A DNA stretch of 64,000 nt, taken from a bacterium (GTDB lineage: Bacteria > Patescibacteriota > Minisyncoccia > Minisyncoccales > UBA10102). Location: contig JAUSJT010000003.1 of the NCBI GenBank assembly GCA_030647485.1, positions 9,092 through 73,091 on the forward strand. Direction: 5' to 3'. The position numbers were made by a program, and so were the translations under genes. The notes under the pieces are model-generated. The model saw only the letters and a list, made by a program, of their open reading frames with translations, made no database searches and was not told where the DNA came from. Below are positions 6,621 to 53,990 of this stretch, in pieces (positions within the stretch are counted from its first letter, which is position 1; the number at the start of each line of letters is the position of its first letter).

Positions 6621-8132
6621 ATGAAAAAACAAGATATGCAAAAATACGCAAAAGCATTAAAAAGAGGTCATTTAGCAAGCCTTTCAGTTGATGATATTGT
6701 TGAACTCATAAAAAGAGCGGATGGGAAATGTTATTTGTGTGAGGAAAAAATAGACCTTGACAATATCGGGAAGATTGATGGTGACAAGAAAAATTCAAAC
6801 GGTCCTCTTAGTGTTGAAAACTTATATCTGACACATAAAAAGTGTAATATTCAAAAAAGCAACGAACCCGTTTCGATAGTTAAAGCTAAATTAGCTTTCT
6901 CTAGGTTTTACGAAAAGAAAGATTCTGTTTCATTTAATGACTTTTTAGATGAGTATGTTCCGAATAATAGAAAAACCGTAAGATTTAAAATCACCAACGA
7001 TATCGCATATTTAAAGTTTGGAGAAGACGAAAAAAATACACCTATATTTACTGACCCTGCTACTAAAATACAGTATTTCTTTTATGAATTACCGATGGAT
7101 TACATATATAATGATGATGAGGTGCAACCAAGACCAATCGATAAATCTCACCTGTTTAAAATGATGGCCGATTTTCAAATCCATCCCGTACATGAGCCAT
7201 CAGATTGTCGTATTGTTGATAATAGTAGAATAGATGGTAATTATAAAGAAGCTAAGTTACTACAGTTTGATGGTCAACATAAAAGTGCTGCTCAGATATT
7301 AATAGGTCGGACGAAGTTACAATTTAAAATCTACATTGCACCATCTATAAAATTGATAAGAGAATTGGTTATTATCATTCAGAATGAAATTAAGAAAAAA
7401 GCTGTTTTGGAATCAATTGTGATAAAACGCATGAGCGCATCTTATATGGACAGATGGAATGAGTATATTGAATCGCCAGGAGAACATTCAGAGGCAGGCC
7501 TAATTGAATCTTTACCTAATCAAGAGAAAAAACTAGCTAAAAAAGAGCTAATGAATGCAGTTTATAGTAATATAATAGACAATAAAGAATTAGAGTTAAA
7601 GGAATTTGTTACCACGGGGCAAACTAGAAGTGAAAAAAATAGACCCATTTCTATTAATTTACTAAAGCAAATAATAAATAATTTTGTTTATAGTAAACCT
7701 AACGATGTTCCTGTTGGGGAAAAAGACTCAAGAGAAATTGAAGCAGAAAACACCACTAAGTTTTTAAACATTATCTCAGAGGCAATTTTTGGGGAACTTA
7801 CCCCAATCCAAAGGAATCGCCAAGATTTACCAGAAAAGATATTGAGGATTTGGAAATCTGGTTCTGTAAAATTTTGGGCAAATATATTAAAGAACCTAAT
7901 CAGTCACAGGTTGAATATTATTGCTGAAGATGACAAAGAAAGAATTTTTCAGCGTAAATTGACTGCAAATGATTGGGACGGAATCGGGAAAACCGTAAAT
8001 AGACTTTTTTCTCATTCGGTTTGGGGTAAAATTGATCAAAATTTAGACAAAATACTAAATTCAAACGATCTTAAGGCTGCAACAAGAGAGTTGGCTAAAA
8101 AAGGATTGGACACCGATTTCTTGATTAAATAA
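6621..8132 (+). CDS. 503-aa protein with N-terminal degenerate HNH-like motif; putative nuclease or specificity component of the R-M island
   Basis: CYLCEEK...IDGDKKNSNG...NLYLTHKKCNIQK matches the HNH CxxC...DH...N...CN pattern, but the catalytic His is replaced (DGD). Tightly packed in the operon. Confidence 0.4.
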   Translation: MKKQDMQKYAKALKRGHLASLSVDDIVELIKRADGKCYLCEEKIDLDNIGKIDGDKKNSNGPLSVENLYLTHKKCNIQKSNEPVSIVKAKLAFSRFYEKKDSVSFNDFLDEYVPNNRKTVRFKITNDIAYLKFGEDEKNTPIFTDPATKIQYFFYELPMDYIYNDDEVQPRPIDKSHLFKMMADFQIHPVHEPSDCRIVDNSRIDGNYKEAKLLQFDGQHKSAAQILIGRTKLQFKIYIAPSIKLIRELVIIIQNEIKKKAVLESIVIKRMSASYMDRWNEYIESPGEHSEAGLIESLPNQEKKLAKKELMNAVYSNIIDNKELELKEFVTTGQTRSEKNRPISINLLKQIINNFVYSKPNDVPVGEKDSREIEAENTTKFLNIISEAIFGELTPIQRNRQDLPEKILRIWKSGSVKFWANILKNLISHRLNIIAEDDKERIFQRKLTANDWDGIGKTVNRLFSHSVWGKIDQNLDKILNSNDLKAATRELAKKGLDTDFLIK

Positions 8133-12686: not shown

Positions 12687-14074
12687 ACCCCGTTAGAAAT
12701 TTACAAAGGTATATACATGCGAAGCGCGAGTGGCGAATAGCCACATCTTTTCATGGGCGCAGCGCTTCGCCAATGACAGTATGCACCTATTCGGTGCGCG
12801 CACTGCGCTCTGTAATACACGGTAAATTTCTAAACGGGGTGAACCGCAACACTCAAAAAGGTTTTGCAACATTGTATTTCGTGCTTCTCGCGCTTTTTCT
12901 TGTTGTTTCTATAGCAGGAAGTTCGTTTCTCCTTGTATCCTGGCAGCAGCGCGTTGGGAGGAATACCCAGAATTCTGTCCAGGCGTATTGGGCAGCAGAG
13001 GCAGGGATAGAGGACGCACTCTTGCGTCTGAAAAAGGGAATGTCCTGGGTAAATCCCATTTCCTTTGCTGCGGGAGAAGGAGTGACAACCACTACCATTA
13101 TGGAAACTGCGCCTGGAACAAATCTTGTGGTAGCGCAAGGAGACGACTCATCCCGTGTTCGAAAGATCCAGGCGCTCCTTGAACTCTCTGGCATCACCCC
13201 CGTCTTTTTCTATGGCGCCCATATAGGAAGCGGAGGTCTGCAAATGGATAATCTGAGCAAGGTGATAGGAAACGTGTTTTCCAACGGGAATATTGCGGTT
13301 ACGTCAGGGCAGGCGGAGATTACCGAAACAGCTACGGTTGCGGGACTTGGAGGAAGCATATCGAGAGTAATTTCAAAGCATGCGTTCGCGGACATGTGTA
13401 CGGGTTCTAATATTGCGCAGGAGCTTCACGCAAATAACAAGGGAAACTGCACCTACGGCTCTTATATCCCTCTTGGAACTCCTCCAGCTCCCGTTCCTCT
13501 TCCCATCAGCGACGAGGGAATACAGCAATGGAAGGATGCCGCGCAGGCCGGAGGCGTGCACCCAGGGAATTATGAGCTTAGCGGAAGCAGCATTGCAACG
13601 CTTGGCCCCAAGAAAATTACAGGGAATCTCGAAGTTGAAGACAGCGCCATACTCACCCTCACGGGAACCTTGTGGGTTGCAGGAAACGTGGTAGTGCAGA
13701 ACAGCGCGCGGGTAAAACTTGCCAGCTCTTATGGGGCAACCAGTGGAGTCATTGTGGTAGACGGCACGATTACCCTGGGGAACAGCAGCATTTCTGAAGG
13801 GTCGGGCAACCCAGACAGTTATCTTATCTATCTTTCAACAAACTCTTCAAACCCTGCGCTCATCATTAAAAACAACGCCATAGCAGACATCCTGTATACT
13901 TCCCAAGGATGGATAGTAGTGGAAAATAACGCTCAGCTTGTTGAAGCAACAGGATATGGCATCCATTTAAAGAATAACGCCGTTATCCAGTATGAGACCG
14001 GCCTTCAGGATGCCAGATTTACTTCAGGTCCTGGAGCTTCGTGGGAGCTTTCTTCGTGGCAAGAAATTGAATAG
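12683..14074 (+). CDS. PilX-like minor pilin with beta-helix-like C-terminal region; start uncertain (possible GTG at 12839)
   Basis: QKGFATLYFVLLALFLV PilX-type N-terminus. Ser/Thr/Asn/Gly-rich repetitive C-terminal half. Confidence 0.6.
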   Translation: MNPVRNLQRYIHAKREWRIATSFHGRSASPMTVCTYSVRALRSVIHGKFLNGVNRNTQKGFATLYFVLLALFLVVSIAGSSFLLVSWQQRVGRNTQNSVQAYWAAEAGIEDALLRLKKGMSWVNPISFAAGEGVTTTTIMETAPGTNLVVAQGDDSSRVRKIQALLELSGITPVFFYGAHIGSGGLQMDNLSKVIGNVFSNGNIAVTSGQAEITETATVAGLGGSISRVISKHAFADMCTGSNIAQELHANNKGNCTYGSYIPLGTPPAPVPLPISDEGIQQWKDAAQAGGVHPGNYELSGSSIATLGPKKITGNLEVEDSAILTLTGTLWVAGNVVVQNSARVKLASSYGATSGVIVVDGTITLGNSSISEGSGNPDSYLIYLSTNSSNPALIIKNNAIADILYTSQGWIVVENNAQLVEATGYGIHLKNNAVIQYETGLQDARFTSGPGASWELSSWQEIE

Positions 14075-14093
14075 GGGGGTATAATGAAGCATT

Positions 14094-18092: not shown

Positions 18093-18794
18093 TTGTGGTA
18101 CAATTATGTAATGTATTCACGGTATTATACGTTTAAACCCAAAGCTGTTAGGTTGCGTAAGGCTGGGAAAACATACGGAGAGATTAAGAAGATACTTAGA
18201 GAATCAATCTCAAAGAGTACCTTATCGCATTGGTTTCGGGATATTATACTTACTAAGATTCAGCAAGGACGGCTGCAGAAGCGAGTTTCCATAAACATAA
18301 AAAGGGCACAGATCAAGGCTTGGGCGGTTAATAAAAAAAGAAGAGAGGAATATATTCAGAATGTCCGAGATCGTGTGAGACATTTTCCGAATGAATTGCG
18401 TAGGAAAAAGAGTGCGAAGATTGCACTTGCGATGCTCTATCTAGGGGAGGGGGCAAAGACCAACGGTGGATCTTTAATGTTTGGTAATTCAGATCCCTCT
18501 GTTATATGCCTGTTTCTTCATTTATTACGGTATTGCTATGATATTGATGAAAAGAAATTTCGCTGTACGCTTCAGTGTCGTTCCGATCAAAATATTGAAA
18601 AGTTAGAGAAATTTTGGTCACGCATGACACAAATTCCTCCATCGCAATTTTATAAAGCAAGAGTTGATCCAAGAACAATTGGGAAACCGTCACGAAACCT
18701 TGAATACAAAGGGGTTTGCAGAATAGACTATTTTTCCGGTGAGATTTTTATAGAGTTGCAACAGATTGTAGAAGTGCTTTATACGGGCCGTTAG
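18093..18794 (+). CDS. Putative single-motif LAGLIDADG-type homing endonuclease
   Basis: ALAMLYLGEGAK LAGLIDADG-like motif, basic N-terminal region. Stop codon lies inside the tRNA-Ala 5' end. Confidence 0.5.
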   Translation: MWYNYVMYSRYYTFKPKAVRLRKAGKTYGEIKKILRESISKSTLSHWFRDIILTKIQQGRLQKRVSINIKRAQIKAWAVNKKRREEYIQNVRDRVRHFPNELRRKKSAKIALAMLYLGEGAKTNGGSLMFGNSDPSVICLFLHLLRYCYDIDEKKFRCTLQCRSDQNIEKLEKFWSRMTQIPPSQFYKARVDPRTIGKPSRNLEYKGVCRIDYFSGEIFIELQQIVEVLYTGR

Positions 18795-18856
18795 CGCAGT
18801 GGTAGCGCACCTCGCTGGCAGCGAGGGGGTCGGGGGTTCGAATCCCCCACGGTCCA
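18785..18856 (+). tRNA. tRNA-Ala(GGC)
   Basis: G3:U70 identity pair, anticodon loop CTGGCAG. Confidence 0.85.
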
Positions 18857-21372: not shown

Positions 21373-21455
21373 GCCGCGGTGATGGAAAGGTAGACATGAG
21401 GGGCTTAAAACCCCTTGCTCGAAAGGGCGTGTGGGTTCGATTCCCGCCCGCGGCA
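21373..21455 (+). tRNA. tRNA-Leu(TAA)
   Basis: Anticodon loop CTTAAAA, long variable arm. Confidence 0.85.
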
Positions 21456-21471
21456 CAACTATAGATACAAT

Positions 21472-22212
21472 ATGAAGAGGCATATCGACAAAGATTTTTT
21501 TAAGATCTGGACCGGAGAGATGAGCTATGTTCTAGGGTATATTGTTGCGGATGGCTGTATTTATAAAAGGAAAGATAGAAAGGATAGTTATATTTTAAAC
21601 ATCACATCTAAGGATCGAGACCACTTAGTGAGCATAAACAAAAGTTTACATTCTGACTACCCAATAAGCATAAAATATAATTCTCAGCGGATGCCCCATT
21701 CTCAAATCCAAATCTCCAACTTAGAGATTTGCAAAGATCTCATGAATTTGGGGATATTACCCAGAAAAACAATTCATCTAGAGCCCATTAGTGCCCCAGA
21801 TAAATACTTTTTCGATTTTGTACGTGGATTTTTTGATGGCGACGGTAGCGTTTATATCTATATAGTAAATGGAGTCTCACAAATTAAGGTAAATTTTGTC
21901 AGTACTAGCTATTCTTTTCTAGATAATTTTAATTCACATCTTTGCAGGGATCTGGGTATTTCTCAAAAATCTATACACAGATTATTACCAAAAGATGATC
22001 GAAGACTCATCAAATATTCTATTGATTTTTATATTAGTGATTGTGAAAAATTAGCAAAGTATCTCTACGAGAATGATCCAGCCCTCTATCTTACTCGTAA
22101 ACGAAGAATCTTTGAAGATTGGAAGTCAAAACCGCGTCGCCAGTATATTAAGAAAAATTATCCTTCAAAAGTTGGTTGGCATCTGAATCAACAAGTTTCT
22201 GTACTTAATTAA
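21472..22212 (+). CDS. Double-motif LAGLIDADG homing endonuclease
   Basis: LGYIVADGC and VRGFFDGDGSV motifs. Confidence 0.8.
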   Translation: MKRHIDKDFFKIWTGEMSYVLGYIVADGCIYKRKDRKDSYILNITSKDRDHLVSINKSLHSDYPISIKYNSQRMPHSQIQISNLEICKDLMNLGILPRKTIHLEPISAPDKYFFDFVRGFFDGDGSVYIYIVNGVSQIKVNFVSTSYSFLDNFNSHLCRDLGISQKSIHRLLPKDDRRLIKYSIDFYISDCEKLAKYLYENDPALYLTRKRRIFEDWKSKPRRQYIKKNYPSKVGWHLNQQVSVLN

Positions 22213-22223
22213 CAAACTTGTAG

Positions 22224-22257
22224 CAAGGCCATGCGAGTTCGACTCTCGCCTTGGGCA
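22224..22257 (+). other. tRNA 3'-half fragment (T-arm + acceptor 3' strand) right after the homing-endonuclease gene
   Basis: GCGAGTTCGACTCTCGC T-arm followed by CCTTGGGCA. No matching 5' half was found. Confidence 0.5.
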
Positions 22258-22265
22258 CTAAAACA

Positions 22266-22292
22266 AAAAGCGGGCTTGAGCCCGTCTTTTGT
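22266..22292. terminator. Bidirectional rho-independent terminator
   Basis: aaaagcgggcttgagcccgtctttt. Confidence 0.7.
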
Positions 22293-28321: not shown

Positions 28322-28416
28322 AGCGTAATAATTCACTATCAGTGAATTAAACGCTGCTGGAACGTTGAACGTAAAATTTGCAGAGCAGATTAACGTTCTT
28401 ACGTTCCGCAACGCTG
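28322..28416 (+). repeat. tRNA-associated structured repeat, family B, copy 1
   Basis: gcgtaataa-[palindrome]-aaacgctg hairpin, then ggaacgtt...ttacgttccgc hairpin. Same architecture as the copies at 53204 and 53833. Confidence 0.55.
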
Positions 28417-28498: not shown

Positions 28499-28891
28499 GT
28501 TGTTGTCGAGAAGCTCCTTGAAATATATATCTAAATCTTCAATATTTTTCAACTCCTCTTTTGTGAACCAGCGAAACTCGGTGTGGTCGTTGTCGAGCTT
28601 CGGTTCTCCTGCAATCGTGCCGACATAGGTCAATCGTACCACATGTTTTCCTGGTGCGCGAAGAATGTCTTGGGCGGCAACAAGCACTGGTTCTTCAGTT
28701 AGCTCAAGGGAAACTTCCTCCATGATTTCCCGCTTGAGATTCTCAAGAAGCGGGGAACCTGGTTCAATGCGTCCTCCAACAATGTCCCATTTTGCGCCGA
28801 CCTCTGGATACTTCTCAGAAGATCGCCGGACTAACAGGTATTTACCCCCATTATTTTTTAGGAAAGCTTTTACTCCAACTTGTAATTCCAT
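28490..28891 (-). CDS. NUDIX hydrolase
   Basis: Nudix box GGRIEPGSPLLENLKREIMEEVSLEL. Confidence 0.85.
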   Translation of the reverse strand: MELQVGVKAFLKNNGGKYLLVRRSSEKYPEVGAKWDIVGGRIEPGSPLLENLKREIMEEVSLELTEEPVLVAAQDILRAPGKHVVRLTYVGTIAGEPKLDNDHTEFRWFTKEELKNIEDLDIYFKELLDNNKI

Positions 28892-28895
28892 ATTT

Positions 28896-28972
28896 TGGTG
28901 GGCGGTATAGGATTCAAACCTATGGCCTACGCAGTGTAAATGCGTCGCTCTAATCAGCTGAGCTAACCGCCC
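28896..28972 (-). tRNA. tRNA-Val(TAC) with encoded CCA
   Basis: Acceptor GGGCGGT/ACCGCCC, anticodon loop TTTACAC. Confidence 0.85.
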
Positions 28973-28975
28973 GCG

Positions 28976-29090
28976 CTCACACGGTTCCCCCCGACCCCCC
29001 CTCTTTTAGAAACCCACGGTTTCTAACGTTCGCTTCGCTTACTGTTTTCCTTCACGGGGAGAACCGAATTTTGCTTTCGCAAAATTTCTC
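28976..29090 (-). repeat. ~105-nt structured inter-tRNA element, family A, copy 1
   Basis: Conserved hairpins ttagaaacc-cac-ggtttctaa and aattttgc-tttc-gcaaaatt, long-range pairing cggttcccc/ggggagaaccg. Similar to the copies at 30444 and 39494. Confidence 0.55.
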
Positions 29091-29091
29091 T

Positions 29092-29176
29092 TGGTGGGCA
29101 AGGAGGGATTTGAACCCTCAAGCCTTGCGGCATGCGCCCCTCAAACGCACGCGTCTGCCAGTTGCGCCACTTGCCC
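29092..29176 (-). tRNA. tRNA-Leu(GAG) with encoded CCA
   Basis: Class II tRNA, anticodon loop TTGAGGG, variable arm GCCGCAAGGC. Confidence 0.8.
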
Positions 29177-29180
29177 AGAT

Positions 29181-29630
29181 TTACTTTGTAGGTTCTGTTC
29201 TGGTGACCTCTTCTTTTATCTGATCCTCTTTTAATGGCTCTTCTGGCACCTCCAGGGAGAATTCCTTTGCCTTCAATCGGGCTTTCTTTCCCTTCAAAGA
29301 TCTTAAGTAATAGAGTTTGCTATGGCGGACTTTAGTTTTTCTTGCTACCTCTATTTTCTCAACCAGAGGAGAATGTAGGGGGAATACCCGTTCCACTCCA
29401 ATACCTTGGCTTATCTTGCGCACCGTAATGGTGCCACTCACCCCTTTCCCGTGCTTCTTGGCAAGCAAAACGCCCTCAAAGACCTGGATTCTTTCTTTGA
29501 CCTGCCCCGACTTCGCGGAAAGGTCCTGTTCTTTTACCTTCTGGTATACTCTCACAATATCTCCTGCCTGAAAATCAGGGGTCTTAGCCTTTAGATATTG
29601 TTTATTGAATGTCTCCATTTTTGTTTCCAT
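29181..29630 (-). CDS. rplS: 50S ribosomal protein L19
   Basis: GDIVRVYQKV...KLYYLR L19 signature. Confidence 0.85.
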   Translation of the reverse strand: METKMETFNKQYLKAKTPDFQAGDIVRVYQKVKEQDLSAKSGQVKERIQVFEGVLLAKKHGKGVSGTITVRKISQGIGVERVFPLHSPLVEKIEVARKTKVRHSKLYYLRSLKGKKARLKAKEFSLEVPEEPLKEDQIKEEVTRTEPTK

Positions 29631-30366
29631 GATCTTGAAGGTTATGTAGTATGCCTTTTAAATCTTCTGGGAGTTCTGAAGTAAATTCTTGTACGATGCC
29701 GTCAGGATATCCTATTTTTATAAAGCTTGCGTGGAGAAAGTGTCTTTGAAGCCCTGCCAGAGTTTTCTGGTTCTTAAACCCGTAGAGCTTATCTCCCACA
29801 ATAGGATGCCCCAGGGATGCAAGCTGTACTCTTAGCTGGTGCTTTCTTCCTGTTTTGGGGAACATTTCTAATAACGTGTATCTCTTCGAGTCTGAAGACT
29901 CATTAGAGTCTGAACGACCGGAATATCTTTCTCGCACCTGATATTCCGTAATCGCCTCCCTTTTTCCTGCAGATCCTGGTTCTCCTGGAAGATAAATCCT
30001 TTGTTTTCTCTTGTCGCCAGAAGACCTTCCAAGTAATGTTTCTATTCTTCCCTTCTCCTCTTTTACGTTTCCCTCTACGAGGCAGAGATACTTTTTCTGA
30101 ACGGTGCGGTCTTGGAATTGTTTTTGGGAAAAGGAGAATGCTTCGGCATTTTTTGCCACAAGCAGGATTCCAGACGTATCTTTGTCTAGCCTATGGAGTA
30201 TGCCGTATCTCCGTTCTTCCCCTAGGGCAAGTTGGGCAGGAAACTGCTCTGCAATGGCGTCTCCAACCGTCTTTCCTTCTCCCGGTCCTTCTTTCCATAC
30301 GGCCATTCCTGCAGGTTTTTCTACAACGAGCAGTGTATCATCTTCGTGGATAATGTTCAAGTTCAT
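29602..30366 (-). CDS. RluA-family pseudouridine synthase
   Basis: HRLDKDTSGILLVAK catalytic motif. Confidence 0.85.
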   Translation of the reverse strand: MNLNIIHEDDTLLVVEKPAGMAVWKEGPGEGKTVGDAIAEQFPAQLALGEERRYGILHRLDKDTSGILLVAKNAEAFSFSQKQFQDRTVQKKYLCLVEGNVKEEKGRIETLLGRSSGDKRKQRIYLPGEPGSAGKREAITEYQVRERYSGRSDSNESSDSKRYTLLEMFPKTGRKHQLRVQLASLGHPIVGDKLYGFKNQKTLAGLQRHFLHASFIKIGYPDGIVQEFTSELPEDLKGILHNLQDHGNKNGDIQ

Positions 30367-30371
30367 AATAG

Positions 30372-30443
30372 TGGGCCCAGTAGGAATCGAACCTACTGCC
30401 TCTTCGATGTCAACGAAGCGTTCTACCAGTGAACTATGAGCCC
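30372..30443 (-). tRNA. tRNA-Val(GAC)
   Basis: Anticodon loop TTGACAT. Confidence 0.85.
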
Positions 30444-30547
30444 ACGAGTCACACAGTTTCCCCCGACCCCCCTTCTTTTAACAACCTTCGGTTTTTAATA
30501 TTTTTCCACCACGGGGGAAACTGGAAATTTTGCTCGCACAAAATTTC
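30444..30547 (-). repeat. Family A inter-tRNA element, copy 2
   Basis: acacagtttcccccgacccccc...ttttaacaacc-ttc-ggtttttaa...cacgggggaaactgg...aaattttgctcgcacaaaattt. Collinear with copy 1. Confidence 0.55.
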
Positions 30548-30624
30548 TGGTGGGCGTGGATGGACTCGAACCATCGACCCTGGCTTTATAAGAGCCATGC
30601 TCTAACCAGCTGAGCTACACGCCC
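30548..30624 (-). tRNA. tRNA-Ile(TAT) with encoded CCA, an unusual UAU anticodon
   Basis: Anticodon stem TGGCT/AGCCA, loop CTTATAA. Otherwise a canonical cloverleaf. Confidence 0.75.
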
Positions 30625-32447
30625 TTCTTCTTCCCTATCAATTTCTCAAATTCTTCTCTTTCAATAGTTTCTTTCTCTATTAACACCTTGGCTATCTTTT
30701 CAAGGAGTTTTCTCTTTTGTTTTAAGATCTTTTCCGCAGTTTTCTGCGCACCAAATAGAAGCTGGGCAACCTCTTTGTCTATTTGTGCGGCAACCGCATC
30801 AGAGTAGTTTTGGTATTCTGCTCCTCCTTGATTCAGAAACATAAATTCTTCCCTTGTCCCAAACGTTACCGGGCCCAATTTTTCTGACATGCCGTATTCT
30901 TTCACAATGGCCCTGGCAATTTCAGATGCTTTTTCCAGATCGTTTGAGGCTCCTGTGGTGATATCCTTGAACACCAGTCGTTCTGCGCTGTATCCTCCCA
31001 AAAGCACCGCCATTTCATCAACAAACTCCTTGCGGGTTTTCAGGTGCTTGTCTTCGGTGGGAAGCTTTAGGGTGTATCCTCCTGCTCTTCCCCGAGAGAT
31101 AATAGATACCTTGCGAACGGGGTCTGTATGAGAAAGGGAAGCTGAAACCAAGGCGTGCCCTGCTTCATGGTATGCGGTGATCTCCTTTTCTTTCTTTGAG
31201 AGCAAATGGCTCTTTCGTTCAGGGCCCAGAAGAACCTTATCAATGGATTCTAGTAGTTCTTCTTGGGTGATGACAGTTTTGTTCTTGCGCGCCGCAAGTA
31301 TAGCTCCTTCGTTCATAAGGCTTTCTAGATCAGCTCCGGAAAACCCAGGGGTTCGCTCTGCGATCTCTCGCAGCCGCACCGCTTGAGTTAAGGGTTTTCC
31401 CCTTCCATGGATTTTCAGGATTTCTTCTCGGTCATTTACATCAGGAAGATCTAACACAATCCTTCTATCAAACCTACCGGGTCTCAAGAGCGCAGAATCA
31501 AGAACATCCGGTCTGTTTGTTGCGGCGCATACAATAACTGTTGAGTCTCTCTCAAATCCGTCCATTTCTACCAAGATTTGGTTCAGTGTTTGTTCTCGCT
31601 CTTCGTGGCCTCCTGTAAAGGCAAGACCGCGCGCCCTGCCAATTGCGTCAAGCTCATCAATGAAAATGATGCTCCGTTCAGCCTTCTTTGCGGTTGCAAA
31701 CAGGTCTTTAACCCTGGCTGACCCTACTCCCACAAACAGTTCTACGAATTCAGACCCCGAAGCAGAGAAGAATGGAACTCCTGCTTCTGAAGCAACAGCT
31801 CTTGCAAGCAAGGTCTTTCCACATCCAGGAGGCCCTACAAGCAATACTCCTCTGGGAATCTTTGCTCCCATTTGGAGATATTTTTTTGGGTTCTTTAAAA
31901 AGTCTACGACTTCTTCAAGTTCTTCCTTTGCTTCCTTGAGGCCTGCAACATCTTTGAAGGTAACAGTTTGCTTTGGATGTCCTTCTGCTCCGAATAGCTT
32001 GGCCTTTGCTTTCGTGAAGTCAAATGCTTGCCCAAGACCGGCTCGTGCCTGGCGGAACATAAGGAAAAAGAAGAAGACGAAAAAGAGCAAAGGGAAGATA
32101 ATAAAAGAAAGTGGGCCCAGCCAAGACATAATACCTGTTTCTTCTTTTGTTTCGATGTCTACTTTTGCTAACTTGTCTTTTTCTACCCCGTAGTTTACAA
32201 GCGATTCCCCAAGAGAAGTTTCAGGTTCTTTCCTGGATTGCCTCTCGCCATTCTCCCGATACAGAATCATGAGGTTGTTTCCTGAAACGGTAATCTTCTG
32301 CACCGTCCCCTCGTTAATATCCTGTACAAGCTTTGAGAGTGTGACCCTTTCAACCTGCTTGAAGGGTTCTGCAAACATCGAAAACAGGACCGATACGGCC
32401 AATAGGATGAGCACCACAGCTATAAAGTTCTTGGAAAGATTCTTCAT
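30615..32447 (-). CDS. ftsH: ATP-dependent zinc metalloprotease FtsH
   Basis: Walker A GPPGCGKT, SRH, HEAGH zinc site. Confidence 0.9.
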   Translation of the reverse strand: MKNLSKNFIAVVLILLAVSVLFSMFAEPFKQVERVTLSKLVQDINEGTVQKITVSGNNLMILYRENGERQSRKEPETSLGESLVNYGVEKDKLAKVDIETKEETGIMSWLGPLSFIIFPLLFFVFFFFLMFRQARAGLGQAFDFTKAKAKLFGAEGHPKQTVTFKDVAGLKEAKEELEEVVDFLKNPKKYLQMGAKIPRGVLLVGPPGCGKTLLARAVASEAGVPFFSASGSEFVELFVGVGSARVKDLFATAKKAERSIIFIDELDAIGRARGLAFTGGHEEREQTLNQILVEMDGFERDSTVIVCAATNRPDVLDSALLRPGRFDRRIVLDLPDVNDREEILKIHGRGKPLTQAVRLREIAERTPGFSGADLESLMNEGAILAARKNKTVITQEELLESIDKVLLGPERKSHLLSKKEKEITAYHEAGHALVSASLSHTDPVRKVSIISRGRAGGYTLKLPTEDKHLKTRKEFVDEMAVLLGGYSAERLVFKDITTGASNDLEKASEIARAIVKEYGMSEKLGPVTFGTREEFMFLNQGGAEYQNYSDAVAAQIDKEVAQLLFGAQKTAEKILKQKRKLLEKIAKVLIEKETIEREEFEKLIGKKKGV

Positions 32448-38323: not shown

Positions 38324-39422
38324 GCCGTAAGCTCATGCGGTGTTCTATTGCGTTTATCTCTAAAACCTGGAAAGCGTAGGTTTCTCCTTGTTTTAACACT
38401 TCTTCCATTCTTTTTCTGGTGCCAAACTCGGAGATATGGCAGAGGCCCTGGATCTTAGGTTCAATCTCTATAAATGCTCCAAAAGGATTCAGTTTGGTTA
38501 CTTTTCCCTGCACCTCGTCAAGCTTTTTCCATCTCTTTTCTATTTCTTTCCATGGGTCTTCTTTCAGAGCCTTCAAAGACAAGGAAGCTCTTCCGTTAGA
38601 AAGGTCAATTATTTTGGCCTGCACCTTGTCTCCTATTTTCACAAAGTCTCCAGGATTCTCAATTATTTGCCAGTCTATCTCTGAAATATGGATAAGACCT
38701 TCAATCTCCTCTCCTTCTTTTCCAAACTTCACAAAAGCGCCAAAGTCCACAACGCCTGTAATTTCTCCTTCTACCATGTCTCCTATTTTGTACTGCCCGA
38801 GTATTTCCTTGATTTTCTTTCGTTCCTTGGAGCGCTCGGAAAGAATAATTTTCTGGTCTGTGGGGTCCAAGTCAAAGATCTGCACCTCCAGCTCTTTGCC
38901 CATGAATTTCTGCAAAGCCAAGAGTATTTTAGTTGAATCTCCGTCTTCTATCTTGGGATAATGCTCCTGGGAAAGCTGGGAAACAGGAAGAAACGCAGGA
39001 ACGCCCAATATCTCGGCAAGTAACCCCCCTTTGTTAGCTCCAATGACTGTCACCGACAGGAGTTCTTCGTTATCTTTCTTCTCTTGGAGTTTATCCCATG
39101 TGAGTTCTTTTCCTGCTTCTTTCAGGGATAGTTCTATATATCCTTCGTCATTCTCAAGTTCAATAATTTTGCCTGCTATGCGGTCTCCTATCTTTAGGGG
39201 CTTGAGGGTTCTTTTCTCATCTAAAAATTCCCTTCCATAGATAATGCCTGTTCCTTGGGGGCCCAAATCCAAATACACGGCAGACCTTCCAGTTCCAATG
39301 ACCGTGCCCTCAACAATATCCCCCATTTTAAGGGGTTTTTGAGTATCTGTTTTTTGCGTAGTGTCTTCTAACAGGGCTACTGGCATATCTTGCACTATAT
39401 GCTTGAACGTTGTGTGTGTCAA
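38199..39422 (-). CDS. rpsA: 30S ribosomal protein S1 (four S1 domains)
   Basis: Repeated S1 OB-fold motifs (GDxVxGxV...GLxHISE). Low-complexity P/E/A-rich tail. Confidence 0.85.
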   Translation of the reverse strand: MTHTTFKHIVQDMPVALLEDTTQKTDTQKPLKMGDIVEGTVIGTGRSAVYLDLGPQGTGIIYGREFLDEKRTLKPLKIGDRIAGKIIELENDEGYIELSLKEAGKELTWDKLQEKKDNEELLSVTVIGANKGGLLAEILGVPAFLPVSQLSQEHYPKIEDGDSTKILLALQKFMGKELEVQIFDLDPTDQKIILSERSKERKKIKEILGQYKIGDMVEGEITGVVDFGAFVKFGKEGEEIEGLIHISEIDWQIIENPGDFVKIGDKVQAKIIDLSNGRASLSLKALKEDPWKEIEKRWKKLDEVQGKVTKLNPFGAFIEIEPKIQGLCHISEFGTRKRMEEVLKQGETYAFQVLEINAIEHRMSLRLKSLDSSRDVSTSDAPAETPESASPTAEPQKTPEPEAPQEG

Positions 39423-39493
39423 CCCTTCACCTTAAGTTTAAGGTGAAGGGTCAATGGACTTTCCTTCTGTTTTGAGATATAATGGATACGATC

Positions 39494-39585
39494 ACACGGT
39501 TCCTCCCGACCCCACTCTTTTAGAACCTTGCGGTTCTAATATTTCCACCACGGGAAGAACCGAAATTTTATGTAATAAAATTTTA
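39494..39585. repeat. Family A structured element, copy 3 (not flanked by tRNAs)
   Basis: cacacggttcctcccgacccc...ttagaacc-ttgc-ggttctaa...cacgggaagaaccgaaattttatgtaataaaatttt. Confidence 0.5.
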
Positions 39586-39587
39586 TT

Positions 39588-40247
39588 ATGCAAATCTCTT
39601 GGAAGGGTCAAGCTTGTTTTTATATGGTTGTTTCTCGGGGAAAAGATTCCCAGGTAAAACTGGTGATTGACCCTTATGGGGAAGCAACGGGTTTGTCATT
39701 GCCTAGTATGGAAGCAGACGTGGTTTTGATTACGCATGACCATGAAGACCACAACAACAAGAAAGGGATAAAAGGAGAACCCTTTATTATCTCCAACCCG
39801 GGAGAATACGAGGTAAAGGGAGTATTTGTACAGGGTATACCCTCGTTCCATGATGATGCGTTAGGAAAAGAACGGGGCCAAAATACCATATATACCCTTA
39901 AGGGAGAGGGGATCAGGGTATGCCACCTTGGGGATTTCGGCCAAAAAGAGCTCACGCCCTTGCAGTTAGAGAGCATTGGGGATGTTGATATTCTCTTGAT
40001 TCCCGTTGGAGGAGTGTATACCATTAATGGGAAAGAGGCGCAGAAAGTCATAAGTCAGTTAGAACCCAAAATAGTAATTCCCATGCATTATGCTTTGCCA
40101 AAGTTAAAGTACAAGTTAAATCCGGTAGAAGACTTCTTGCGCACCATGGGAGCAAAGAAGGTAGAGGCCTTGGAAAAGCTTGTGATCAAGGAAAAGGATT
40201 TGTCAGCCGAGCGGGAAGAAACAGAAATTATGGTATTACAATCCTAA
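39588..40247 (+). CDS. MBL-fold metal-dependent hydrolase
   Basis: LITHDHEDH metal-binding motif. Confidence 0.8.
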   Translation: MQISWKGQACFYMVVSRGKDSQVKLVIDPYGEATGLSLPSMEADVVLITHDHEDHNNKKGIKGEPFIISNPGEYEVKGVFVQGIPSFHDDALGKERGQNTIYTLKGEGIRVCHLGDFGQKELTPLQLESIGDVDILLIPVGGVYTINGKEAQKVISQLEPKIVIPMHYALPKLKYKLNPVEDFLRTMGAKKVEALEKLVIKEKDLSAEREETEIMVLQS

Positions 40248-48046: not shown

Positions 48047-48053
48047 ATATGTA

Positions 48054-49130
48054 TTATAAGCTCAAATTGGGTTGAGCTTCAATGTGCTTGTGTTTTTTGA
48101 ACCCAGAACGCAGCCATGTTGCATATCCCGCAACCGCGATCATTGCCCCGTTGTCTGTGCAGAACTCCGGTGGCGCTACAAGAAAACGCATCCCAAACTT
48201 CTTTGTTTCCTTCAGGAGCGTGTTCCGCAACAGCTTATTTGCTCCCACACCTCCCCCAAGAATAATTGCTTTTGCAGAATATCTGTGCGCCGCTTTCAGT
48301 GTTTTTTGAACAAGCACTTCAATAATTGCTTTCTGGATTTCTTTTGCCATTTCTTGTGTATACACTGTCGATTCTCGTACTTTTTTTGATCTGGACTTCC
48401 AGTCATAGAGCACCGCCGTCTTTAATCCAGAAAAGCTAAAGTCATAATCTTTCGTGGAGATCATTGGCCGGGGAAGCCGGAGTTTATATATGTTTGTTTC
48501 GCATAATTGTGCTTGCTGGGATATGGCAGGACCGCCAGGATATGGAAGACCCAAAACCCTCGCTGTCTTGTCAAAGCATTCTCCTGCCGCGTCGTCTCGT
48601 GTTTCTCCCAAGAGTTTGTATTTTCCGAGCGCGGATACAAAAATAAGCTGAGTATGTCCTCCTGATACCAAAAGCGCTAAGGCAGGCAAGATGTTTCCTA
48701 AGCGAGGCTTAGGAATTCCTAAGCCTCGCTTAGGCGAACCCAAGAACAGGCTGATGAGGAGGTGCCCTTCCATGTGGTTTGTGGGAATAAGGGGAACGTT
48801 CCATTGTTTTGTAAGTTCTTGAGCTTTATTGAGACCTGCCCATAAGCACGGGGAAAGTCCAGGACCGTAGGTTATGGCAAGAGCATCTAGTGCAGGATGC
48901 AAAGGGTCTAGCTTTGCTTTTTTTAGTGCCTTGGAGACAACAATGGGCAGGTTAGTTTCGTGCTCTCTTTTTGCCATATTCGGGTACACTCCCCCATACT
49001 TTTGATGAATTTCAATTTGGGAAGCTATGTTGTTGGCGAGAATACGAAAAGAAGGGCTTTTTCTTCCCTTGGCTTCTATAATGCTTATCCCTGTGTCATC
49101 GCAGGATGTTTCAATGCCCATAATGATCAT
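48054..49130 (-). CDS. tsaD: tRNA N6-adenosine threonylcarbamoyltransferase TsaD (ORF extends to 49181)
   Basis: MIIMGIETSCDDTGISI N-terminus and the HxxxH/GGVxxN Kae1/TsaD family motifs. Confidence 0.85.
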   Translation of the reverse strand: MIIMGIETSCDDTGISIIEAKGRKSPSFRILANNIASQIEIHQKYGGVYPNMAKREHETNLPIVVSKALKKAKLDPLHPALDALAITYGPGLSPCLWAGLNKAQELTKQWNVPLIPTNHMEGHLLISLFLGSPKRGLGIPKPRLGNILPALALLVSGGHTQLIFVSALGKYKLLGETRDDAAGECFDKTARVLGLPYPGGPAISQQAQLCETNIYKLRLPRPMISTKDYDFSFSGLKTAVLYDWKSRSKKVRESTVYTQEMAKEIQKAIIEVLVQKTLKAAHRYSAKAIILGGGVGANKLLRNTLLKETKKFGMRFLVAPPEFCTDNGAMIAVAGYATWLRSGFKKHKHIEAQPNLSL

Positions 49131-53203: not shown

Positions 53204-53290
53204 CAACGTAATAAATTTGCTTTGCAAATTTAAACGTTGCTGGGACGTTTAATCTCTGAAAGAAATTATTACGTCCCGCCAATTAGGAAA
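53204..53290 (+). repeat. Family B tRNA-associated repeat, copy 2
   Basis: acgtaataaatttgctttgcaaatttaaacgttgctgggacgtt...ttacgtcccgcc. Confidence 0.55.
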
Positions 53291-53832: not shown

Positions 53833-53990
53833 CAGCGTAATAAATTTTGCTTTAGCAAAATTTAAACGCTGTTGGAACGTTGAAATTTCAAGAGGAAATT
53901 TCTTACGTTCCGCCTTCAGATGATACGTTCAACGCTACTGAGACGTTTAAATTTTCACAGAAAATTTATTACGTCTCGCCTTCTTATGTT
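53833..53990 (+). repeat. Family B repeat, copy 3, with the second hairpin unit duplicated
   Basis: gcgtaataaattttgctttagcaaaatttaaacgctgttggaacgtt...ttacgttccgcc, then a second gagacgtt...ttacgtctcgcc unit. Confidence 0.55.

Follow-up and report, generated by a model that had tools for sequence, protein, structure and literature searches.

The small repeats closest to the element described here fall into three groups. Those of the Correia/NEMIS (Neisseria), ERIC, RUP, and BOX type are noncoding, multicopy sequences of about 100 to 150 bp that lie in short spacers near gene starts; they are cotranscribed, form hairpins, are present or absent between close relatives, and can alter promoters or RNA processing. 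Correia elements carry 26-bp terminal inverted repeats and duplicate a TA target. Rickettsia palindromic elements (RPEs) are small palindromic insertions in a reduced, host-dependent genome, RNA genes included; no autonomous partner is known for them, and they often are inserted in frame within protein genes. REP/REPIN-RAYT and IS200/IS605-derived elements have neither terminal inverted repeats nor target duplications, form several families per genome, and have compensatory hairpins, as would be expected if an HUH/Y1 enzyme reads folded single-stranded DNA. Patescibacteria have genomes that rank with the most streamlined in bacteria, and they are generally held to contain little mobile DNA. 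Here, we analyzed 64,000 nucleotides of one such genome (assembly GCA_030647485.1, contig JAUSJT010000003.1, positions 9,092 to 73,091; lineage UBA10102), which we call the window, and describe family A, a small structured element present there in three copies. On balance, we favor the view that family A is a non-autonomous mobile structured element in ultrasmall Patescibacteria.

Family A is like each of the above groups in the traits just listed, apart from the in-frame insertions of RPEs and the terminal inverted repeats and target duplication of Correia elements. From its 5′ end, it consists of a 5-nt box (ACGNT), the sequence CACA, a 12-bp helix (P1), and, directly after P1, an A/T-rich hairpin (P3) that varies in sequence; across the family, the element measures 95 to 120 bp. 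P1 closes a large, asymmetric, pyrimidine-rich internal loop, which holds a further hairpin (P2, 8 to 9 bp) and whose conserved strands read GACCCCCC-UCUUUU on one side and AAUAAUUUCCNACAC on the opposite side.

Three copies of family A in the window

The original prediction, made from the letters of the window, had claimed three collinear copies that share a 5′ block, hairpin P2, a 3′ strand pairing back to the 5′ block, and the terminal A/T hairpin P3. The copies were borne out, and every block is present in them. The 21-nt 5′ block has three matches at three or fewer mismatches in the window, against zero expected. A covariance model (R1; 77 positions and 21 pairs, trained on 27 distinct copies) recovers these three and no others in the whole window (78 to 90 bits), with scores of 89.5, 87.1, and 78.5 bits for copies 1, 2, and 3; the next-best match, at 18 bits, is the antisense strand of an element copy. 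In the same order, the 5′ block with the 5′ strand of P1 reads CGGTTCCCCCCG, CAGTTTCCCCCG, and CGGTTCCTCCCG, the 3′ strand of P1 reads CGGGGAGAACCG, CGGGGGAAACTG, and CGGGAAGAACCG, and P2 is 9 bp, 9 bp with one mismatch, and 8 bp long. The places predicted for the copies were right; their boundaries were refined by means of empty sites (see below) to 28973-29087 (plus CTCT), 30444-30547, and 39486-39583 (+/-3). The parts of the copies and their immediate neighbors are as follows.

28973..29091, plus strand: copy 1 (subtype a, long), filling the tRNA-Val(UAC)/tRNA-Leu(GAG) spacer
28973-28977, plus strand: copy 1 box, GCGCT
28982-28993 with 29055-29066, plus strand: copy 1 P1
29006-29014 with 29018-29026, plus strand: copy 1 P2
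29027-29044, plus strand: copy 1 extra 18-nt segment
29067-29087, plus strand: copy 1 P3
28896-28972, minus strand: tRNA-Val(UAC), bordering copy 1
29092-29176, minus strand: tRNA-Leu(GAG), bordering copy 1, which splits the tRNA pair 28896..29176
30444..30547, plus strand: copy 2 (subtype b), filling the tRNA-Val(GAC)/tRNA-Ile(UAU) spacer
30444-30449, plus strand: copy 2 box, ACGAGT
30454-30465 with 30512-30523, plus strand: copy 2 P1
30478-30486 with 30490-30498, plus strand: copy 2 P2, with one C.T mismatch
30524-30547, plus strand: copy 2 P3
30371-30443, minus strand: tRNA-Val(GAC), bordering copy 2
30548-30624, minus strand: tRNA-Ile(UAU), bordering copy 2, which splits the tRNA pair 30371..30624
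39486..39583, plus strand: copy 3 (subtype c), between the MBL-hydrolase -10 box and ATG
39488-39492, plus strand: copy 3 box, ACGAT
39497-39508 with 39551-39562, plus strand: copy 3 P1
39520-39527 with 39532-39539, plus strand: copy 3 P2
39563-39571 with 39575-39583, plus strand: copy 3 P3
39455..39483, plus strand: MBL-hydrolase promoter TGGACT-17-TATAAT, kept in relatives L042 and L043 without the element; gene ATG at 39588

The tRNAs that flank copies 1 and 2 lie on the minus strand. The copies in the tRNA array had been said to begin directly after the encoded CCA of the upstream tRNA; this holds for the P3 hairpin end, whereas the end with acacgg abuts the 5′ end of tRNA-Val. Read along the tRNA strand, the order at copy 1 is tRNA-Leu(GAG)-CCA, 4 nt, P3, the P1/P2 core, the box, and tRNA-Val(UAC), and that at copy 2 is tRNA-Ile(UAU)-CCA, P3, core, box, and tRNA-Val(GAC). 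The 4 nt at copy 1 (CTCT, 29088-29091) are probably a leftover of the original spacer. Copy 3 starts 3 to 5 nt downstream of the MBL-hydrolase -10 box. A short-read (Logan) contig of the window's own strain breaks off inside this copy, the kind of break that repeats tend to cause.

The three copies share the same three-helix fold, and shuffled controls fold less well than either of their strands (z, -2.5 to -5.2); because P1 comes close to a palindrome, both strands can form it. A repeat match at 7603 was considered as a fourth copy, but model R1 gave no confirmation. A reading of the copies as small open reading frames (ORFs) was likewise set aside: on inspection, the box holds an ATG only in its ATGAT variants, and the overlapping ORFs (29071-29223, 30429-30605, and 39454-39657) run antisense through tRNAs or across a promoter.

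Empty and filled orthologous sites

Among the readings offered in the original prediction was that of a miniature mobile element, and it is this one that the orthologous sites support: the window copies are absent from related contigs with the same gene and tRNA order, and the family is multicopy and patchy. The window's order is kept in contigs L041 to L045 and in the genome-derived L033, of which L045 and L033 are the more distant. Their L19 proteins are 60 to 85% identical to that of the window in L041 to L045 (80 to 85% in L041 to L044), and the flanks of L041 to L043 are mostly about 78 to 88% identical at the nucleotide level. tRNA-Ile(tat) and tRNA-Val(gac) are 1 to 5 nt apart in L041 to L043 and L045, and tRNA-Leu(gag) and tRNA-Val(tac) are 3 to 8 nt apart in L041 to L045 and L033, in both cases with no element. 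The Ile(tat)/Val(gac) spacer of L033 is 79 nt long and unrelated to family A; it contains (L033, 3504-3582) a truncated stretch resembling a tRNA 3′ end and two G+C-rich hairpins, so the same spacer has been colonized by different sequences in different lineages. More broadly, a metagenome scan with the L19 protein gave 80 loci (875 kb), in none of which does R1 find a copy. Exact-protein look-ups with the window's RluA and L19 found no record.

Site 3 gives the clearest outline of the inserted unit. In L042 and L043, the empty site reads TATAATGGTTG/TATTATG, with TATAAT, 9 nt, and ATG intact, and continues as TATAATGGTTG/TATTATGCAAATC. The window reads ...TATAATGGAT, then the insert (ACGATCACACGG...ATAAAATTT), then TATTATGCAAATC... 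From this comparison, the inserted unit is box plus core plus P3, about 98 nt. It starts with ACGATCACA and ends with ATAAAATTT. Its ends carry no inverted repeats, and a 12-bp inverted repeat occurs only as P1, which lies 9 to 10 nt inside the left end and 21 to 24 nt inside the right end. There is no target duplication of 3 bp or more, one of 1 to 2 bp still being possible. The ACGNT box is part of the insert and is absent from empty sites. The MBL-hydrolase promoter is older than copy 3.

The converse situation was found as well. L008 carries a copy in front of valS, after a gene that by eye alone looks like tsaD; the window has TTATAATACATATATG at this place. L032 carries one between tRNA-Ala(ggc) and tRNA-Ser(cga), which in the window are 10 nt apart, with an empty spacer. 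At the dnaG-rpoD junction, L006 and L011 carry copies of different subtypes, and all six samples of the L006 species have its copy, which is thus fixed among them. The idea of a conserved rpoD leader was nonetheless rejected: four related RpoD lineages have no gap between dnaG and rpoD, the two genes abutting or overlapping, and no copy within 10 kb of rpoD, and 169 kb around rpoD homologues contain no copy.

Since relatives have empty sites within the same gene order, the window copies are insertions. Judged from these alignments, all three are recent, lineage-specific, whole-unit insertions and not part of the tRNA machinery. The original prediction had also proposed a recombination site through which the tRNA array was assembled. 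This is contradicted by relatives in which the element is missing but the arrays, Ile(tat)-Val(gac) and Leu(gag)-Val(tac)-Phe-Gly, are the same. We therefore find it very hard to credit a tRNA-array recombination site, and no easier to credit an intrinsic terminator or insulator, even though the copies do lie between genes and the P3 hairpin does end in a T run. As far as motifs can tell, the element has no integron attC core sites (RYYYAAC...GTTRRRY, at the hairpin base): P1 has CGGTTTCC...GGAAACCG at its base, and the neighbors are housekeeping genes and tRNAs, not gene cassettes. Terminator scans find none in the copies, which lack a G+C-rich stem with a U tract; P3 stems consist almost wholly of A and T, and what comes immediately after them is an ATG or a tRNA that has to be cotranscribed.

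Distribution and placement beyond the window

A pattern scan with CACACNGTTNCNCCCGACCCC, covering one genome per GTDB species, matched 40 loci, and the full collinear element is present in 27 of them, all in metagenome-assembled genomes (MAGs) that are labeled Parcubacteria, Nealsonbacteria, Wildermuthbacteria, Saccharibacteria, or Patescibacteria or are unlabeled. The other 13 are chance matches in unrelated G+C-rich genomes, without the 3′ blocks. On the 27 loci, R1 finds 30 strong and 3 diverged copies, 33 in all, in about 13 Patescibacteria MAGs; one MAG holds at least 12. Four sequence subtypes coexist within single genomes and recur between genomes, the window having one each of a, b, and c. 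Its copies are nearly identical to same-subtype copies in genomes whose genes are about 68 to 75% identical to its own, and the core of copy 3 equals that of the L019 copy at 75 of 75 positions.

More distant forms exist. In a further subtype, another outer P1 (AAATTACCCCG/CGGGGTAATTT) surrounds the same loop sequences, and two copies have extra hairpins inserted in the 3′ loop strand. L007 and L038 hold circularly permuted versions (CUCCUU-P2-AAUAAUUUCCNACAC-GGGAGGAU-loop-AUCCUCCC-GACCCCUCC), and L008 has a version with about 170 nt of hairpins in place of the loop, the loop sequences of the family being kept. The permuted and expanded versions have no Rfam match. At gathering score, Rfam 15 finds only tRNAs in the window, and tRNAs plus one 16S rRNA in eight related loci; a permissive Rfam scan of 28850-30700 gave chance-level matches only. 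In the literature searched, we found no description of small elements of this kind in Patescibacteria. On these comparisons, family A is previously uncatalogued. Several members crowd one place: L007 2440-3020 is a noncoding island of about 600 nt in a compact genome, with standard, diverged, and permuted members and other G+C-rich hairpins.

Each intergenic spacer with a copy is taken up by it entirely, and between codirectional genes the element is found facing either way. They lie between adjacent tRNA genes, between a stop codon and the next start, or between a -10 box and ATG; none was seen inside coding sequence. In orientation one, a stop codon or -10 box is followed by box, core, and P3 and then by an ATG, and the downstream genes are rpoD, valS, clpP, murA, a C-terminal protease gene, corA, and the MBL-hydrolase gene. 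In the other orientation, a stop codon or tRNA 3′ end is followed by P3, core, and box and then by an ATG or tRNA 5′ end, with rpsD, rplJ, tig, or nusA or the genes for tRNA-Val, -Ala, or -Trp downstream. Downstream genes were named by eye, with Pfam support for the MBL hydrolase and for rpoD (the latter in homologues). Tight abutment to gene ends follows from preinsertion spacers of only 1 to 10 nt.

Of 36 copies, ten have a tRNA gene no more than about 110 nt away, and two window copies precede tRNA-Val genes. Both facts, the former including a copy-bearing rRNA operon spacer in L009, could speak for a tRNA-operon noncoding RNA (ncRNA) or processing signal, that is, a leader or trailer for tRNA-Val maturation or expression. 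The relatives, however, have the same tRNA pairs 1 to 8 nt apart with no element, most copies lie beside protein genes, and the tRNA-linked copies face both ways (L010, L032, and L037 one way; the window copies, L009, L015, and L021 the other), which together make such a signal extremely improbable. The processed, cotranscribed ncRNA first proposed is conceivable only as something set free when RNase P and 3′ processing act on the flanking tRNAs; tRNA maturation cannot depend on it, and members also occur beside protein genes in either orientation.

Two of the tRNA-linked sites are unusual in themselves. L009 471-805 (a Parcubacteria MAG) has two inverted copies, head to head, in the tRNA-Ile(gat)/tRNA-Ala(tgc) spacer of an rRNA operon; the 16S match of this contig (2808-5230) spans 2.4 kb, which implies a 16S gene with large insertions. 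In L010 (5690-5880) and the orthologous L037, the element lacks the A/T hairpin and is flanked by partial copies of the first ca. 16 nt of the following tRNA-Leu(cag), direct upstream and inverted downstream, so that the whole element lies inside a hairpin of tRNA-derived sequence. This hairpin may be a footprint of the insertion mechanism.

Covariation and the functional-RNA alternative

Retention of the stems through compensatory changes, which the original prediction had hoped for, was seen in both P1 and P2. Among the window copies, P1 pair 2 changes from G-C to A-T in copy 2, a C-G pair becomes T-A in copy 3, and P2 of copy 3 has a paired 1-bp deletion. In the family alignment, the named helices are paired in 93.5% of cells, versus 29 to 60% with slid partners, and double changes occur at five pairs (for example, G-C/A-U at P1 pair 2, 16:10; A-U/C-G in P2, 12:11). 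Compensatory changes do not separate an RNA structure from one of single-stranded DNA. A strand test by wobble pairs gave no strand signal, with G.U on the plus strand in 8 cells and A.C on the plus strand (which is G.U on the minus strand) in 13; pyrimidine-pyrimidine cells numbered 19. A triplex (H-DNA) reading of the pyrimidine mirror repeat TTTCCCCC-GA-CCCCCCTCTTTT was rejected because subtype c is without triplex-type covariation.

It could be argued from such features that family A is a functional plus-strand RNA (CACACGG first), either a multicopy small RNA (sRNA) gene or a 5′ leader module, its mobility being secondary. The exposed C/U-rich loop (CCCCCCUCUUUU; CCUCC in the permuted forms) would then be anti-Shine-Dalgarno-like, in the manner of the C-rich motifs of Gram-positive sRNAs, or protein binding, and P3 would be a 3′ hairpin. 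Loops are more conserved than stems, stems covary between subtypes, P3 keeps its structure and not its sequence, orthologous copies are better conserved than coding sequence, and the permuted and expanded variants retain the loop sequences. Moreover, many copies have a host -10 box 4 to 12 nt upstream of TCACAC, which would put the start at the element's box, and the box itself appears to have the A2/T6 pattern of a -10 hexamer. Nevertheless, about half of the copies are antisense to codirectional flanking genes or tRNAs, with no room for a promoter of their own; the putative -10 has its first T in only about one-third of copies, with no -35 box and no extended -10 TG; the wobble counts show no asymmetry between G.U and A.C; the functions downstream in orientation one are unrelated; and close relatives manage without the element. 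We consider a functional RNA of this kind rather unlikely. In one orientation only, UCUUUUAACAA/UCUUUUCAAAAC may resemble rrn boxA, and GAUCAC...CCUCUUU may resemble the 16S 3′ end; after a motif scan, both leads were set aside.

Comparison with known systems

Unlike Correia elements, family A has no repeats at its ends and duplicates no target. P1, its one long inverted repeat, lies in the interior, conservation is highest in the noncomplementary loop strands, and there is a separate, variable 3′ hairpin. Of the features of a classical miniature transposable element with inverted repeats (MITE), it has small size, lack of coding capacity, multiple copies, and site polymorphism, without the terminal inverted repeats and target duplication. 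With RPEs it shares no sequence similarity, and its copies were seen outside coding sequence only. It lacks the GT[AG]G-type 5′ tetranucleotide that marks the 20- to 40-bp imperfect palindromes of REP/REPIN, and, whereas REPIN halves are inverted copies, its loop strands ACCCCCCTCTTT and TGTCGGAAATTA are unrelated. It differs from IS200/IS605-derived elements in that P2 and P3 are dissimilar and in that there is neither a preexisting tetra- or pentanucleotide target nor a shared flank motif. No Y1 transposase was seen near copies or in the scanned window ORFs.

Intervening sequences (IVS) of rRNA, which are removed in processing, are likewise sporadic extra stem-loops in stable-RNA operons, as are the two copies in the L009 rRNA spacer; however, IVS lie inside rRNA helices, whereas family A lies in spacers and beside protein genes. 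C-rich sRNAs (RsaE/RoxS) and riboswitch-like leaders also present an unpaired C/U-rich loop on covarying helices and are alike, too, in having a closing helix, a variable hairpin, and then a start codon. They are single-copy or few-copy genes, fixed in orientation and coherent in their targets; family A is multicopy, orientation free, and insertion polymorphic and has no Rfam match. Its occurrence in both orientations, upstream of unrelated genes, and its absence at orthologous sites of relatives are not those of a riboswitch or cis-acting leader. The element works like Correia, RPE, or REP-type repeats yet lacks what defines a MITE, REP/REPIN, IS200/IS605 element, attC site, terminator, or riboswitch.

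Spread of the element and conservation of its copies

How such an element might move and persist can be outlined as follows. The sites show that the whole unit is gained at once, in the tiny spacers of a compact genome and in either orientation. It would spread within and between Patescibacteria genomes, moved in trans by an enzyme that recognizes the folded, single-stranded core. An enzyme reading the folded core would explain the conjunction of conserved loops with covarying stems. Copies presumably survive because the transcribed element folds closed and does not tie up the start codon or tRNA ends beside it. Within tRNA arrays, cotranscription followed by RNase P cleavage and 3′ trimming would set it free as a by-product, whereas before protein genes it would form a structured leader in an organism with mostly leaderless or Shine-Dalgarno-less starts. 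Most window genes have a TATAAT-like box 6 to 9 nt before the ATG and no Shine-Dalgarno sequence (e.g., 14074-14093, 18095-18110, 39394-39422, and 48047-48062), and leaderless or near-leaderless mRNAs seem to be the rule in this organism. At such genes, a plus-oriented insertion yields a structured leader of about 100 nt, and copy 3 would thus be transcribed as a ca. 100-nt leader of a formerly near-leaderless MBL-hydrolase mRNA. The 3′ arm of P3 is often TAAAAT, 4 to 9 nt before the ATG, and could serve as a replacement -10 box.

Several observations weigh against a plain mobile repeat. Orthologous copies are 94.7% identical between L030 and L038, versus 71% for adjacent coding sequence, and 96% identical between L010 and L037, versus 81%. 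Within subtypes, identity is 92 to 93% in the core, 65 to 72% in P3, and about 50% in the flanks, and individual copies look selected rather than decaying. Four identical type-c cores in three genomes have unrelated P3 hairpins, which simple, recent whole-unit transposition does not predict. Permuted and expanded forms with kept loops also appear more typical of functional structured RNAs than of MITEs. No source of mobility was found: Pfam found no transposase, integrase, or reverse transcriptase in 30 window ORFs; the 535 ORFs around copies (about 190 kb) include no repeated ORF and no transposase candidate; no longer, autonomous version with the same ends was seen in those 190 kb or in the scanned window ORFs; the flanks contain no conserved target motif; and viral contigs, scanned with three patterns, gave no copies, the loosest pattern alone producing chance matches. 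The conservation pattern and the permuted forms suggest that the core is read by something, which might be the moving enzyme or a host factor acting on RNA.

Purifying selection on each copy of a selfish insertion would be explained if the element were an intervening sequence, self-processed or processed by RNase, in which its own catalysis or the action of RNase III on stacked P1 and P3 restores a proper end to the neighboring tRNA or near-leaderless mRNA; each copy would then be under selection because the host gene must go on functioning. Both ends abut tRNA ends and start codons tightly, although this is expected anyway from original spacers of 1 to 10 nt. The sites before essential genes with leaderless or coupled starts in relatives (rpoD, rpsD, rplJ, nusA, tig, and valS) and the permuted topologies also fit. 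RNase III, RNase J, and PNPase have reportedly been kept in Patescibacteria (PMC12641178), which we count in favor of this idea. Against it, no Rfam ribozyme family matches, the element works in both orientations, unlike a single catalytic strand, and P1 (12 bp) plus P3 (8 to 9 bp) is barely long enough for RNase III. We regard this type of processing as improbable, more so than a functional RNA. The conserved loops, covarying helices, and permuted topologies are indirect hints of what might be a new class of self-cleaving ribozyme.

The functional-RNA and intervening-sequence alternatives are compatible with mobility, and the explanations are not mutually exclusive. One conceivable combination, to which we give only limited credence, is that structured RNA of a new class and mobility go together in one element, with an invariant loop core active in self-processing, in recruitment of RNase or ribosomes, or in binding as a Shine-Dalgarno mimic. 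If so, activity of the core would let the element sit harmlessly before essential leaderless genes and in tRNA and rRNA operons, as a bacterial counterpart, for spacers, of the harmless intron, and one that moves without terminal repeats or target duplication.

Under our preferred reading of a non-autonomous mobile element, ca. 100-bp units wedged into 1- to 10-nt spacers of tRNA arrays, rRNA operons, and essential-gene starts imply that these genomes are still being invaded, by a family that is nearly sequence invariant across distant lineages. Its unusual set of features (ends without repeats, a target left unduplicated, unpaired loops that are conserved, helices that covary, and relatives in permuted form) suggests either an undescribed mobilization mechanism or a structured RNA that has its own function. 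In practical terms, such repeats break metagenome assemblies, as in the Logan contig, and can pass for conserved regulatory RNAs; model R1 provides a handle for surveying them.

Other features of the window and related contigs

A second small structured family, family B (AGCGTTGCGGAACGT, A/T hairpin, AAACGTTCCAGCAGCGTT, A/T hairpin, TTACGCT), has the following copies in the window.

28322-28415, minus strand: tRNA-Phe/tRNA-Gly spacer
53205-53290 and 53834-53990: after two tRNA-Ser genes

Family B is present in L042 and L043 and absent in L041, which has a 7-nt spacer, so that it, too, is insertion polymorphic. It shares an AAATTT..AAATTT hairpin module with P3 of family A, and a "solo" hairpin at 53843-53863 belongs to it.

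The context of copy 3 includes a further promoter, outside the element.

39394..39422, minus strand: divergent rpsA promoter TTGACA-17-TATAGT, 7 nt before the rpsA ATG (39386)

Between this and the MBL-hydrolase promoter lies a perfect 12-bp palindrome, CCCTTCACCTTAAGTTTAAGGTGAAGGG (39425-39452); the L042 sequence differs here. Elsewhere, the variable loop and T stem of tRNA-Ala(GGC) (GAGGGGGTCGGGGG, 18826-18845) have 14 nt identical to the minus strand of the element core (GAGGGGGGTCGGGGG region), which may be chance in G-rich sequence or a hint of a tRNA-derived origin.

Of six population contigs from the L006 species, two (L255 and L258) have a split TrkH, family A not being the cause. One Nealsonbacteria-like lineage (L247/L248, 7107-10022) has a DnaG intein with a LAGLIDADG domain. 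In the window, 21373-22267 contains an ORF for a LAGLIDADG homing endonuclease (21472-22212) directly after tRNA-Leu(UAA), followed by a second stretch resembling a tRNA 3′ end at 22229-22267; an intron or insertion may thus lie within the tRNA-Leu(UAA) gene or adjacent to it.

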